Source: a plasmid. From it: a stretch of 64,000 nt of DNA. Below are positions 23,633 through 28,409 of this stretch, piece after piece (the stretch's first letter is position 1; each line of letters starts with the position of its first letter). The notes beneath the pieces are model-generated. The model saw only the letters and a program-made list of their open reading frames with translations, was not told the origin of the DNA and ran no database searches. The DNA lies in sequence record NZ_LR134454.1, one strand, 5' to 3'. The translations under genes and the position numbers were made by a program.

Positions 23633-25081
23633 ATGAGTATCACTGCAATCTCCGTTGCGGCGTACATCGTCGCCTCGCTGCTGTTCATCCTCTCGCTGGC
23701 CGGGCTGTCCAAGCACGAGACCTCCAAGAGCGGCCTGACCTACGGCATCGTCGGCATGGGCATCGCCCTGGTGGCGACCATCGCGCTGGTCATCGACAAG
23801 GTCCTCAAGCCCGAGCTGGACCTGACCTGGCTGCCCGTCCTGCTCATGGCCGGCGCCATCGTCATCGGCGCGCTCATCGGCTTCTGGCGCGCGCGCATCG
23901 TCGAGATGACCGGCATGCCCGAGCTGATCGCCCTGCTCCACTCCTTCGTGGGCCTGGCGGCCGTGCTCATCGGCTGGAACGGCGCGCTCGAGGGCTTCCA
24001 CGCCGACGGCGTGAACCCGGCCGACGTCCGCGCGCTCACCAACATTCACGAGGCCGAGATCGCGATCGGCATCTTCATCGGTGCGGTCACCCTGACCGGC
24101 TCGATCGTCGCCAACCGCAAGCTCTCCGGCAAGATGAAGTCGGCGCCGCTCATGCTGCCCGGCAAGAACTACATCAACGTCGGCTCGATCGTCGTCTTCA
24201 TCGTGCTCACCGCGGTCTACGTCTCGCGGGACACGCACGGCGACAACACCTCGATGATCCTGCTGGGCGTCATCACCGCGCTCGCCCTGTTCCTGGGCTG
24301 GCACCTGGTCGCGTCCATCGGCGGCGGCGACATGCCCGTCGTCATCTCGATGCTCAACAGCTACTCCGGTTGGGCCGCGGCCGCGTCGGGCTTCCTGCTG
24401 AGCAACGACCTGCTCATCGTCACCGGTGCGCTCGTCGGCTCCTCGGGTGCGTACCTGAGCTACATCATGTGCAAGGCGATGAACCGCTCGTTCATCTCCG
24501 TCATCGCGGGTGGTTTCGGCATCGAGGCCGGCCCGGCCGACGACAAGGACTACGGCGAGCACCGCGAGGTCAACGCCGAGCAGGTCGCCGAGCTCCTCAC
24601 CGGCGCCAAGTCCGTGGTCATCACCCCGGGCTACGGCATGGCCGTGGCGCAGGCCCAGTACGGCGTCGCCGAGCTGACCAGCGAGCTGCGCAAGAAGGGC
24701 GTCGAGGTCCGCTTCGGCATCCACCCCGTTGCCGGCCGCCTGCCCGGGCACATGAACGTGCTCCTCGCCGAGGCGAAGGTGCCGTACGACATCGTGCTCG
24801 AGATGGACGAGATCAACGACGACTTCCCCGAGACCGACGTGGTCCTGGTGATCGGTGCCAACGACACCGTCAACCCGGCCGCGTCCGAGGACCCGAGCAG
24901 CCCCATTGCGGGCATGCCGGTGCTCACGGTGTGGGAGGCCGAGAACGTGATCGTGTTCAAGCGGTCGATGGCCGCCGGCTACGCCGGCGTGCAGAACCCG
25001 CTGTTCTTCCGTGACAACTCGGCGATGCTCTTCGGCGACGCCAAGGACCGCGTGCAGGACATCCTCTCCGCGATGCGCTGA
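23633..25081 (+). CDS. pntB: NAD(P) transhydrogenase beta subunit
   Basis: 482 aa with an N-terminal multi-TM region and a C-terminal NADP(H) dIII domain ([10 protein letters not shown]…). Confidence 0.85.
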
Positions 25082-25092
25082 CGCGAACAGCA

Positions 25093-25132
25093 CTCGGGCC
25101 CGGCACCGTCGAACGACGGTGCCGGGCCCGAG
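25093..25132. terminator. Perfect 19-bp stem, 2-nt loop hairpin between convergent pntB and the NmrA-like gene
   Basis: CTCGGGCCCGGCACCGTCG-AA-CGACGGTGCCGGGCCCGAG. Confidence 0.55.
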
Positions 25133-25138
25133 TCGTCT

Positions 25139-25789
25139 CTACGTCCAGGCCTCCTCGATGCGGACGTCGCCGTCGGTGAACGGCAGGTCCTTCCCCACGG
25201 TGTCCGGCCGGTCGAGCACCGAAGCGGCCACCAGCGCGACGTTCGCGCGCGACGTGCCGGGGTTGTCCGCGGCCCGCACGGCCACGGGATCCACCCGCCC
25301 CGTGGGCTCGTCGAGAGTGAGGCGGCCCGGCATGAGCACGGTCCAGTCCAGATCGGAGGCGCGCACCGCGACGTCGGCGGCGGCCTTCGCCTCCGCGTAG
25401 GGGAAGAAGGCGTCCGTCTCCGGGACGCCGTGGTCGGGGGCGGCGCCGAGGTACGAGACCATGACGTAGCGCTTCACCCCGGCCGCCTCCGCGGCCTGCA
25501 CGGAACGGATCGCCGCGTCGCGGTCCACGGCGTAGGTGCGGTCGGGGTTCCCGCCGCCCGCGCCCGCGGAGAAGACCACCGCGTCGGCGCCCGCGAGCGC
25601 GGCCGCGATCTCCTCGCGCGACGCGTGCTCGACGTCCAGGACCAGGGGTTTCGCCCCGGTCGCGGCGACGTCCGCCGCGTGCTCCGGGTTCCGTATCCAC
25701 GAGGTGACCGCGTCGCCCCGGGAGCTGAGGACGCGCGCCAGGATGAGCGCGATCTTGCCGTGTCCACCGATGATCGTGACAGCTGCCAT
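25139..25789 (-). CDS. NAD(P)H-binding NmrA/SDR-like oxidoreductase
   Basis: About 216 aa with the N-terminal Rossmann motif TIIGGHGKIA. Confidence 0.7.
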   Translation of the reverse strand: MAAVTIIGGHGKIALILARVLSSRGDAVTSWIRNPEHAADVAATGAKPLVLDVEHASREEIAAALAGADAVVFSAGAGGGNPDRTYAVDRDAAIRSVQAAEAAGVKRYVMVSYLGAAPDHGVPETDAFFPYAEAKAAADVAVRASDLDWTVLMPGRLTLDEPTGRVDPVAVRAADNPGTSRANVALVAASVLDRPDTVGKDLPFTDGDVRIEEAWT

Positions 25790-25814
25790 GCATTCCAACG
25801 TACGCGCTTGCTCC

Positions 25815-25855
25815 TGCGGTGGATTCTTGCCGCTCAGCGGGCACTATCCACCGCA
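25815..25855. repeat. 41-bp nested palindromic element, copy A (TGCGGTGGAT-N-CCGCTCAGCGGGC-N-ATCCACCGCA)
   Basis: The outer inverted repeat is 10 bp and perfect; the inner stem is also palindromic. It lies 22 bp 3' of the DUF559 stop. Confidence 0.6.
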
Positions 25856-25877
25856 CTGCTGCCGCCCGCGAGCGCGC

Positions 25878-26768
25878 TCACGCGGCGGCGGCGTTCACCG
25901 CGGTCAGGACATCCGTGATCACGGCCTCGCCGTCGCCGTCGAGGCGGTGCCACCCGAAGCGCAACACCCGCCACCCGGCGAGAGTCAACCGGTTCTGCTT
26001 CCCGGCGTCGTTCGCGGCGCGGTCGGCCGTGCGGTGAAAGGCCCATCCGTCGATCTCCACGGCGACCCGCTGCTCGGGGAAGGCGAAGTCGATCGCGTAG
26101 ACGCCGAACGGGAACTGCGCGCACCACCCGGTGACGTGATGCGACTCGAGGAGCGACTGGAATCGACGCTCGGCTTCCGACTCCGTATCGCCGGCGACGA
26201 CGTCGAGCAGGCGCCGCGCCTCAGCCATCCCATGCCGGCCGGCGTTGCGGGTCAGCGCGGCGGTGAGCCCGTCGATCGTGACGATCCCCTCCTGCAGCGC
26301 GCGGTCGAGGTGGGCGCTGTTCGTCGACGCCGCCTCCAGGGCGGTCAGCGGCGCCGTCGTCACGGTGAGACCGCGGACCACTTCCAGGTCTGCAGGGAGG
26401 AGATCGCGCCGGTGCAGTTCCAAGGAGTACGGCACGGTGGGCGACCGCTTGTTCTGGCGCGGGACTGTGACGGACACCGAGTCCGGCGGTGACTCCACGA
26501 TCCCGTGCCACCACGCCGCCGCCGGCCCGTCGACCGCGCCGTCCGTGGCTCCCACGGCGGCCCGCATTCTCGCCTCCGCGGTGAAGGTGTGCGTCGCCGA
26601 GAGATACACGCCGCTGCTGAGCTGGATCCACAGTTTGTCGCGGACGCGCCTCGCTACGGCGGATGAGCTCATCCCGAGCTTCAGCGCCGCGCCACGCGTG
26701 ATGACACCGTCGTGGTCCGCGAAATGCTCCGCGACCAGCCTCGCCACCGTCGATGTCCCCATATCCAT
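25878..26768 (-). CDS. DUF559 (Vsr-like endonuclease fold) domain protein
   Basis: About 296 aa. The C-terminal DUF559 region is present (FPFGVYAIDFAFPEQRVAVEIDGWAFH). The start was taken at the MDMGTS codon inside a longer ORF. Confidence 0.7.
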   Translation of the reverse strand: MDMGTSTVARLVAEHFADHDGVITRGAALKLGMSSSAVARRVRDKLWIQLSSGVYLSATHTFTAEARMRAAVGATDGAVDGPAAAWWHGIVESPPDSVSVTVPRQNKRSPTVPYSLELHRRDLLPADLEVVRGLTVTTAPLTALEAASTNSAHLDRALQEGIVTIDGLTAALTRNAGRHGMAEARRLLDVVAGDTESEAERRFQSLLESHHVTGWCAQFPFGVYAIDFAFPEQRVAVEIDGWAFHRTADRAANDAGKQNRLTLAGWRVLRFGWHRLDGDGEAVITDVLTAVNAAAA

Positions 26769-26809
26769 TGGACGCACCGGCTCCGGCGGCGGTTCCCCGT
26801 GCCCGCGGG

Positions 26810-26850
26810 TGCGGTGGATATTGCCCGCTGAGCGGTGAGAATCCACCGCA
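26810..26850. repeat. 41-bp nested palindromic element, copy B. It matches the reverse complement of copy A at 36/41 positions.
   Basis: It lies 41 bp 5' of the DUF559 start and 4 bp 3' of the lysE stop. Confidence 0.6.
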
Positions 26851-26853
26851 TAC

Positions 26854-27465
26854 TCACCCGCCGAGGGGCATCGTCGCCAGCCGCGCGGCGAGGACGAGGA
26901 GCAGGAGCCCGATCGCGAGGTTGATCGCCCGCCACACGCCCGGCCGGCCGAGCACGCCGGACAGGCGGCGGGCGCCGAAACCGAGCAGGCAGAACCAGGC
27001 GACACTGGCGACGACGGCGCCGAGGGCGAACCACCAGCGGTCGGCGCCGTAGCGCGTGGACGCGGAGCCGAGCAACAGCACGGTGTCCAGGTAGACGTGC
27101 GGGTTCAGCCAGGTCAGCACCAACACCCCGGTCACGACAGCCGCGACCGAGGCGGCGCCGTCACCGCCCGCGACGAGCCCCTCGGAACGACGCGCCGACC
27201 ACAGCGACCGCAGGCCGTAGCCCACCAGCACCACGGCGCCGGCCCACTTCACCACCTCCATGAGCAGCGGCCGGCCCGAGACCGCGGCGCCGAGCCCCGC
27301 GACGCCGGCGAGGATGAGCGCGACGTCCGAGGCGATGCACACCGCCACCACCGCGCCGAGCCCGCGGCCGCGCACGCCCACCTGCAGCACGTAGGCGTTC
27401 TGGGCGCCGATCGCCACGATCAGCGAGAGCCCGAGGCCGAGGCCGGCGAGGAGTGCGGAGGTCAT
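26854..27465 (-). CDS. lysE: LysE/ArgO family basic amino-acid exporter
   Basis: 203 aa with 6 TM segments and the LysE N-terminal pattern (LGLSLIVAIGAQNAYVL). It is divergent from a LysR-type lysG. Confidence 0.8.
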   Translation of the reverse strand: MTSALLAGLGLGLSLIVAIGAQNAYVLQVGVRGRGLGAVVAVCIASDVALILAGVAGLGAAVSGRPLLMEVVKWAGAVVLVGYGLRSLWSARRSEGLVAGGDGAASVAAVVTGVLVLTWLNPHVYLDTVLLLGSASTRYGADRWWFALGAVVASVAWFCLLGFGARRLSGVLGRPGVWRAINLAIGLLLLVLAARLATMPLGG

Positions 27466-27536
27466 GGCGTCGACGCTAGGGCCGCGCGGTCCATTAGCGC
27501 CAATACGAAAAGGCGATCACCCATTAGAATCACTTC

Positions 27537-28409
27537 ATGCTGAGCGGGCACCACCTGGAGACCCTCGTCGCGGTGGTCGAGGAGGAGAGCTTCGGCGCGG
27601 CGGCGGCGCGCCTGCGCGTCACCCAGTCGGCGGTCAGCCAGCGGATCCGGGCGCTGGAACAGCAGGTGGGCCACGTGGTCGTCACCCGCGAGGGCCCGTG
27701 CCGCCCCACCGCGCAGGGCGAGGAGCTGCTGGGTCTCGCCCGCGGCGTCGCCTCGCTCGAGGCCGATGCGCTGGGCCGGCTCGCGGGCGGGGCGCCGTCG
27801 GCCGTGCTCGACGTGGGCGTGAACGCGGACTCCCTCGCCACCTGGTTCCGCGACGTGATCGCCGCCGTCGCCGCCCTGCCCGACGGTCCGCTGCTGCGCC
27901 TCGTCGTCGACGACGAGCACCACACCGCGGACCTGCTGCGCGCGGGCTCGGTCCTCGGGGCCATCACCACCGACCCGGAACCGGTGCAGGGCTGCGCCGT
28001 CGAGTACCTCGGCACCATGCGCTACGTGCCGGTGTGTACGCCCGGCTACGCGGAGCGATGGCGCGCCGGCGGGCGCTGGCGCTGGCGGGAGATGCCCGTC
28101 GTGCAGTTCGACCTGCGCAAGGACGAGCTGCAGACCAAGGTGCTCCACCGCCGCGGCATCCGGGAGTCGCCGCCGATGCACCGCATCCCGTCGTCCGAGG
28201 CCTTCACCTACGCCGTCCGCGCCGGCCTGGGCTGGGGCAGCCTGCCCGAGGCCGACCTCGGCGACGCCCTCGACCGCGGCGCGCTCATCCGGCTCACGGA
28301 CGACACCGTCGACGTGAAGCTGTACTGGCAGTCCTGGCGGCTGCACACCCGGGCCACGGAGCGTCTCGCCGATGCGATCCACGCCGCGGCCGCCGTCCAC
28401 CTGCGCTGA
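27537..28409 (+). CDS. lysG: LysR family regulator (LysG/ArgP-type)
   Basis: 290 aa with a LysR HTH (FGAAAARLRVTQSAVSQRIRALE). Confidence 0.8.
   Translation: MLSGHHLETLVAVVEEESFGAAAARLRVTQSAVSQRIRALEQQVGHVVVTREGPCRPTAQGEELLGLARGVASLEADALGRLAGGAPSAVLDVGVNADSLATWFRDVIAAVAALPDGPLLRLVVDDEHHTADLLRAGSVLGAITTDPEPVQGCAVEYLGTMRYVPVCTPGYAERWRAGGRWRWREMPVVQFDLRKDELQTKVLHRRGIRESPPMHRIPSSEAFTYAVRAGLGWGSLPEADLGDALDRGALIRLTDDTVDVKLYWQSWRLHTRATERLADAIHAAAAVHLR

Follow-up and report, generated by a model that had tools for sequence, protein, structure and literature searches.

A one-gene AbiEi-Vsr nuclease module bounded by cognate palindromes, probably an exchangeable cassette, in Tsukamurella and other Actinomycetota

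The stretch of DNA analyzed here (the window; 64,000 nucleotides of sequence record NZ_LR134454.1, from Tsukamurella) carries a gene for a 296-amino acid (aa) protein, predicted to join an AbiEi-like DNA-binding half to a Vsr-type nuclease domain, between two 41-bp palindromic elements designated A and B. The palindrome-gene-palindrome layout proved to be the norm for this gene family, in which the palindromes mark the limits of a one-gene nuclease module and, as its cognate sites, evolve together with it. We consider it fairly probable that the 41-bp elements are the end-sites of a self-contained, exchangeable and presumably selfish nuclease cassette of about 1.05 kb, bound by the AbiEi-like part of its own product. 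The features of the region are the following:

25808-26857, no strand: exchangeable module of 1,050 bp, with limits set by comparison with CP070357.1
25815-25855, no strand: palindrome A, 41 bp, 22 bp 3′ of the nuclease gene stop and 25 bp 5′ of the ATG of the NAD(P)H-binding gene
25878-26768, minus strand: nuclease gene, 296 aa, predicted as AbiEi-like at about residues 1-195 (winged helix-turn-helix plus C-terminal domain) and as Vsr/DUF559 of the EDxHD type at about 196-296
26769-26809, minus strand: 41-bp spacer from palindrome B to the start codon, presumed site of the promoter or leader
26810-26850, no strand: palindrome B, 41 bp, 5′ of the nuclease gene, a candidate AbiEi-type operator
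25139-25789, minus strand: NAD(P)H-binding (NAD_binding_10) gene, a flank outside the module
26854-27465, minus strand: lysE-family exporter gene, a flank outside the module

A first-pass annotation of the window had reported the two elements at these positions in opposite orientation, with identical 10-bp termini (TGCGGTGGAT...ATCCACCGCA in both) and lying 22 bp from the stop codon (A) and 41 bp from the ATG at 26768 (B), all of which was reproduced exactly. Its count of 36/41 matching positions between one element and the reverse complement of the other was too low, the true value being 38/41, compared with 32/41 for A and B in direct orientation. The palindromic core it described was present, with the strictly palindromic part corrected to CCGCTNAGCGG, and the gap from the end of palindrome B to the lysE stop codon was 3 nt, not 4. 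Within the 64-kb window the pattern TGCGGTGGAT-N21-ATCCACCGCA matched exactly twice, the same two sites were returned with two mismatches allowed, and the chance expectation was 0 (100 shuffles). RNA folding, suggested earlier as a check, predicted both elements to be stable (about -23 to -24 kcal/mol each; z -4.6 to -5.9). A counterpart of palindrome A occupies the same position in T. ocularis (locus L027), and the 10 nt adjoining the ATG, GGTGCGTCCA (26769-26778), are kept 5′ of Tsukamurella family members. Read on the minus strand they form a motif, (G)GTGCGTCCA(AT), which does not resemble a Shine-Dalgarno sequence and also lies directly 5′ of start codons at loci L171, L174, L175, L176 and L177, including that of a 46%-identical paralogue.

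In the protein, a DNA-binding half of the AbiEi type is followed by a Vsr/DUF559 nuclease domain. Pfam analysis detected AbiEi_4 at the N-terminus (7.6e-8) and DUF559 at the C-terminus (3.8e-11; DUF559/MTES_1575), the latter in agreement with the DUF559 gene announced between the elements, and the PADLOC AbiEi models matched residues 13-175 (3.4e-18). In the AlphaFold (AF2) model, with a predicted local distance difference test score (pLDDT) of 94.6, the first ~195 residues were matched by Foldseek to the whole AbiEi of Streptococcus agalactiae (6y8q, E 7.6e-6) and the last ~100 residues to the catalytic domain of I-Bth0305I (3r3p; template modelling score, TM, 0.80-0.81; root-mean-square deviation 2.3-2.6 Å), as well as to the DUF559 protein 3hrl (PDB) and to Vsr. 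The catalytic-type residues D227, E238, D240 and H245 fall in columns that are invariant across the family. The ratio of nonsynonymous to synonymous substitution rates (dN/dS) of the nuclease gene was 0.1-0.2, indicative of purifying selection; positive selection on the DNA-binding domain was not seen (pairwise dN/dS 0.11-0.27, with dS saturated), and divergence between alleles is greatest in the AbiEi-like part, its putative recognition helix included. The gene is the only member of its family in the window, and no AbiEii (DUF1814) nucleotidyltransferase partner was found adjacent to it, its neighbours being lysE and the NAD(P)H-binding gene. The family is large, with 3,333 matches at E≤1e-10 among 1.84 billion cluster representatives, and DUF559/AbiEi-domain proteins are among the commonest uncharacterized multicopy genes of Actinobacteria.

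The intergenic site between lysE and the NAD-binding gene was recovered from eight Tsukamurella lineages, and the states found there were the following:

T. sp. 1534: a 48-bp spacer lacking both palindrome and gene
T. sputi: a single solo palindrome in partial decay (CGCGGTGGATAGTGCCCACTGCGCGGACGGGATCCACCGCA)
T. sp. 8F: a different gene at the site
T. soli: the gene, with the upstream palindrome absent and an unrelated hairpin downstream
The window and T. ocularis: palindrome-gene-palindrome
L171, L175 and L176: palindrome-gene-palindrome, with the gene reversed in orientation

Empty, solo-palindrome and full states are all represented in the genus; a comparison of empty sites in related strains had been proposed in the first-pass annotation. 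The most informative comparison was with CP070357.1 (L171), whose flanks are 99.2% and 97.4% identical to those of the window, while the 1,050 bp of the cassette are inverted and only 75.5% identical. Homology between the two ends 7 nt beyond A and, at the other end, 3 nt (plus the stop codon) beyond B, with a dS of 1.07 for the cassette as opposed to 0.03 for the NAD gene and 0.12 for lysE, and a cassette dN/dS of 0.17. Four cassette alleles at the site are 70-77% identical to one another, compared with 89-100% for the NAD gene. Alleles differ in the outer arms of their palindromes (TGCGGTGGAT, TGTGGAGGAT, GTGGTCGAT and TGTGTGAGAT), the changes being compensated and present in both copies, while the apex CGCTCAGCG is largely kept. 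The near-identity of the flanks, the divergence and inversion of the cassette and the breaks of homology outside the palindromes show that the cassette, palindromes included, is an old, functional and independently evolving unit that was exchanged or re-inserted at this site. It is neither a fast-drifting resident nor a flipped copy.

The occurrence of the cassette in both orientations at the same site could also be expected of an inverton, in which the inverted palindromes flip the segment and thereby turn on and off either the gene itself or transcription running on into the NAD-binding gene. Such a role would be in line with the 14-fold enrichment of the term 'DUF559 domain-containing protein' among predicted programmed-inversion targets (PMC9881135). 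We regard this as very unlikely, given that the opposite-orientation cassettes are different alleles (dS ~1), that no invertase or recombinase was found in the 20-kb neighbourhood and that the palindromes of many family members match better as direct repeats. The first of these observations rules out an in-place inversion between inverted repeats. An exchange by cutting at the apex, in which the outer half-palindromes would stay with the chromosome, was also discarded, since the outer halves differ between the window and CP070357.1 and the homology break lies outside the palindromes.

The bracketing by palindromes is a property of the gene family. A metagenome scan with the family alignment yielded 80 loci, 40-48% identical to the query with the exception of one near-identical locus; TGCGGTGGAT termini were seen in hardly any of the 80. 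When the upstream and downstream 280 bp were compared in the 51 non-redundant metagenomic loci with both flanks, a repeat shared by the two flanks was detected in 36 (71%), but in none of 16 controls shifted 1.3 kb outward and none of 51 shuffled controls. The shared repeats are nested palindromes, almost all of 34-72 bp, belonging to several lineage-specific types (for example GCGATTTCGGCGCG..., TGATCGCCG...CGGCGATCA, GATCCGGCAG... and GCGATTTGTGTGCG...) and often with GCTCAGC, GCTCACC or GGTCAGC at the apex. The upstream palindrome ends about 13-44 bp 5′ of the projected start codon (seven loci projected), and the downstream one reaches into the stop codon in about three-quarters of cases, the TGA of TGATCG... 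often being the stop codon itself. Upstream and downstream palindromes were more alike within a locus (identity 0.75) than between loci (0.54), and palindrome similarity correlated with protein similarity (rho 0.33). The best match between paired palindromes was direct in 7 cases, inverted in 4 and tied in 10, and beyond 350 bp from the gene the 22 palindrome/locus cases with loci of at least 5 kb contained no additional copies. Mismatches in the sense-strand stems comprised 84 G.T and 99 A.C; the lack of a G.T excess argues against a role at the RNA level.

Many of the palindromes carry stop codons on both strands at their ends (ctag...ctag or TGATC...GATCA), as in L038 (1335-1375) and in many metagenome loci (for example L098, L148, L162 and L168), and the family gene or neighbouring genes thereby terminate within or at the edge of the palindrome.

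Copies of the window's own palindrome type were sought by scanning 185,579 species genomes for the exact termini, which are therefore fixed by the search; 83 stretches were recovered. Among them, 51 elements of 41 bp came from high-G+C Actinomycetota (Nocardioides, Tsukamurella, Terrabacter, Gordonia, Streptomyces and metagenome-assembled genomes, MAGs). Their interior is variable yet self-complementary, with 109 cells changed on both sides compared with 42.8 in shuffles (0/500), a signal that collapsed in slid controls; this symmetry could reflect base pairing or, equally, two protein subunits reading two half-sites. A hidden Markov model of the family detected a relative of the window gene in 6 of the 83 loci, in each case directly adjoining the element. 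In four of these six a second copy brackets the gene, namely in T. ocularis (L027), Terrabacter ginsenosidimutans (L020, where the family gene is frameshifted), Nocardioides solisilvae (L044) and a MAG (L058). Of the elements flanked by at least 1.2 kb on each side, 40 in all, 6 are linked to the gene and 34 are solo, with neither gene nor remnant within 1.5 kb. The genes neighbouring solo copies are unrelated to one another, and most solo copies lie 1-30 bp past a stop codon, often between convergent genes. Some elements have ctag...ctag ends that give TAG stops to both neighbours. The number of copies with exact termini was at most about seven per genome in this exact-match scan.

The first-pass annotation had offered two readings of the elements, as terminal inverted repeats (TIRs) of a unit resembling a miniature inverted-repeat transposable element (MITE) that mobilizes the DUF559 gene, or as a hairpin family of the repetitive extragenic palindrome (REP) kind used as terminators. 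Of the former, the notion that the palindromes limit a discrete DUF559 unit of about 1.05 kb held, as the unit recurs in other genera and in 71% of the sampled relatives and shows presence/absence and allele replacement at one site. The transposon label was not supported, for lack of target-site duplications, transposase or recombinase. A classical TIR transposon or MITE moved in trans by a transposase encoded elsewhere, with the DUF559 gene as passenger cargo, would account for the terminal inverted symmetry, and the solo 41-bp copies could be its minimal non-autonomous elements. We nevertheless find this explanation scarcely plausible. No target-site duplications were seen in 39 of the 51 elements, whose flanks instead extend the stem by 2-3 bp (often CWG...CWG). 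The cargo is always of the same gene family and co-diverges with the ends, and neither a transposase nor a second gene family recurs near solo palindromes.

The latter reading was right in that solo copies do stand beside unrelated genes, mostly a few bp past stop codons, but the exact copies counted numbered at most about seven per genome rather than hundreds. Generic hairpins flanking DUF559 by chance, and ending or stabilizing the lysE and DUF559 transcripts, would be compatible with this placement, with the stability of the stems and with the three copies found within 3.2 kb in some MAG loci. Against them, no T-run follows the stem-loops (0 terminator-like sites in 25600-27000 by consensus scan), the sense strand shows no excess of G.U over A.C, the upstream copy precedes the start of the gene itself and an Rfam scan of 25000-27600 returned chance-level matches only. 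Because the link to the gene family greatly exceeds the controls and the naive orthologous site has no hairpin, this explanation is strongly disfavoured and in our judgement highly improbable; the palindromes do not form a plain REP or terminator family independent of DUF559.

In MAGs designated MFD01275, three palindromes with TGCGGTGGAT and TGTGGTGGAT termini lie within 3.2 kb (L073, 1409-4622; L052, 3938-6375) and separate ordinary genes, among them an HU-like gene and a FAD oxidoreductase, an indication that solo copies are far denser in some lineages. The inner half-arms in Nocardioides sp. 5M014 are of two types, X and Y (L013, L043 and L053 vs L003, L025 and L038), and two types were also distinguished in Tsukamurella (L008, L024, L032, L037 and L039), with A and B of the window being X/Y and Y/X. 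X/X, Y/Y and mixed X/Y palindromes of either polarity coexist within one genome, as if the halves reassort at the apex. Palindromes of 41 or 42 bp with the same 10-bp termini were detected in the Pseudomonas fluorescens group (L002, L004, L011, L019, L031, L040, L045, L066, L077 and L079), with a CAGTCA...TGACTG inner stem (for example TGCGGTGGATCAGTCAATGATGTAGTGACTGATCCACCGCA) and no DUF559-family gene in the 8-kb loci around them. The 43-bp matches in Aggregatibacter and Canicola (L017, L026, L030 and L041) are unrelated to the cassette palindromes and presumably represent the DNA uptake signal sequence of Pasteurellaceae, AAGTGCGGT, in inverted pairs.

The main rival to an exchangeable cassette is a non-mobile resident gene, encoding an AbiEi-nuclease fusion under tight autorepression that may be toxic or act against phages. 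The upstream palindrome would then be its operator, the downstream one a second operator (for looping) or a terminator, and the solo copies extra binding sites, with the high diversity of alleles being a product, as at loci for defence, of recombination and of diversifying or balancing selection. AbiEi is known to autoregulate through inverted repeats over its promoter (PMC7319586), the PADLOC AbiEi models match, the locus is the same throughout Tsukamurella, the nuclease gene is under purifying selection and the gene is absent from plasmid and phage collections. A resident gene leaves unexplained the near-copy of the upstream palindrome found downstream in most family members, the naive site lacking both palindromes, the relative with exactly one, and the 34 of 40 solo copies beside unrelated genes, and its AbiEii toxin partner is absent. 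Taken together, we deem a resident gene rather unlikely.

In the cassette explanation that we favour, the order of parts would be palindrome, promoter, AbiEi-Vsr nuclease gene, palindrome. By analogy with AbiEi, two AbiEi-like N-terminal halves would bind both arms of each palindrome, so that the upstream copy would repress the nuclease gene. Vsr-type nuclease domains held at the palindromes may then make nicks or breaks, and these would promote recombination at the palindromes, leading to insertion, to deletion that leaves a solo palindrome, to a change of orientation, to exchange of alleles and to the scattering of solo copies. Breaks made by the nuclease as the driver of both rearrangement and solo-copy spread constitute the mechanism that we prefer and infer. 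On this reading, the cassette would be a selfish or semi-domesticated nuclease-plus-repeat system, with analogues in the REP-associated tyrosine transposase (RAYT) systems and in free-standing homing endonuclease genes, from both of which it differs in its components. With more reserve, and as a possibility we hold to be less than even, AbiEi-Vsr cassettes may represent an unrecognized class of selfish elements in Actinomycetota, spanning thousands of gene clusters, that moves, changes orientation, swaps alleles and gives rise to solo palindromes by means of site-directed nuclease breaks and forms a nuclease-based counterpart of RAYTs and their REP doublets forming hairpins (REPINs) without a canonical transposase or recombinase.

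Several observations weigh against an exchangeable cassette. Its movement, binding and cleavage are inferred rather than observed, it contains no transposase or recombinase, and target-site duplications are missing. Allele replacement could result from ordinary homologous recombination in the conserved flanks, not directed by the palindromes, and the persistence of the gene at one locus from T. soli to the lineage of the window fits long residence as well as mobility. In T. soli and in a T. ocularis paralogue a palindrome lies on one side only, and no shared flank repeat was scored in 15 of the 51 metagenomic loci. The full-length gene and the palindrome pattern were not found in plasmid, phage and viral collections.

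Among characterized systems, the closest functional parallels of the cassette are REP/RAYT and free-standing homing endonuclease genes, yet it departs from both in what defines them. As in REP/REPIN-RAYT systems (Bertels & Rainey; PMC3116915, PMC3337134), a single enzyme gene lies between palindromic repeats cognate to it, extra copies are dispersed extragenically, the repeat type co-varies with the enzyme lineage and residence at one locus is long. RAYTs, however, are IS200/IS605-type Y1 (HUH) transposases, whereas the enzyme here is predicted to combine an AbiEi-like binder with a Vsr/PD-(D/E)xK nuclease; the palindromes have no GTAG motif, alleles are replaced between close strains, and the copy numbers observed in the exact-termini scan are low (about seven or fewer per genome), REP/REPIN-RAYT copies numbering tens to hundreds. 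I-Bth0305I, a multidomain protein of the EDxHD family that acts as a homodimer with a footprint of about 60 bp around a central pseudopalindrome (PMC3239194), shares the fold of the catalytic domain (Foldseek TM 0.81), and the cassette gene is likewise present or absent at a fixed site. The cassette gene differs in lying outside any intron or intein and in having an AbiEi-like DNA-binding half. Unlike the target of a homing endonuclease gene, the presumed site is not split, complete palindromes remaining on both sides, and while an empty homing allele carries an intact site, one empty site here has no palindrome and another has one.

The AbiE type IV toxin-antitoxin system (PMC3985639, PMC7319586) shares the whole AbiEi fold in the N-terminal half and a palindrome of paired inverted half-sites just 5′ of the gene, in the size class of AbiEi operators (49-59 bp); AbiEi proteins bind paired 23-bp inverted repeats, separated by a 3- or 13-bp gap, that overlie their own promoter (PMC7319586). 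The differences are the absence of an AbiEii toxin, the predicted fusion of the AbiEi module to a nuclease, the second copy of the site 3′ of the gene and the solo copies elsewhere. Palindrome B ends 41 bp 5′ of the ATG, and no sigma-70 promoter consensus was found at the cassette by consensus scan. Vsr and the short DUF559 proteins of the E. coli type have the nuclease fold and the catalytic-type residues in common with the window protein, which is distinguished by the lack of an adjacent cytosine methyltransferase, an extra 195-aa DNA-binding half and the flanking palindromes. Defining features of AbiE, MITEs, terminators and invertons are likewise lacking from the cassette.

No description of palindromes flanking AbiEi-DUF559 genes was found in the full-text literature, subscription journals aside, and the layout is apparently not yet described. 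The nearest published hint is the table entry on 14-fold enrichment among predicted inversion targets (PMC9881135), and the cassette may account for the DUF559 genes flagged in that survey. Modules bounded by palindromes that are their cognate sites provide a concrete, testable hypothesis for the DNA target of the protein, and the cassette family accounts for a family of dispersed actinobacterial palindromes. If the nuclease does drive rearrangements, this would be a novel means by which a repeat-plus-enzyme system maintains itself in bacterial genomes.

Two further features were noted around the cassette. The convergent pntB and NAD(P)H-binding genes are separated by a hairpin (25092-25133) with a perfect 20-bp stem (ACTCGGGCCCGGCACCGTCG AA CGACGGTGCCGGGCCCGAGT; about -46 kcal/mol) that other Tsukamurella have conserved. 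This hairpin, which probably acts as a bidirectional terminator, is unrelated to the 41-bp family and was the source of spurious Rfam miRNA matches. Genes for Ku and LigD (non-homologous end-joining) are located on the contig of the window about 6-9 kb past lysE (L084, 904-4185), a proximity to the cassette that is probably coincidental, though relevant to the repair of breaks.

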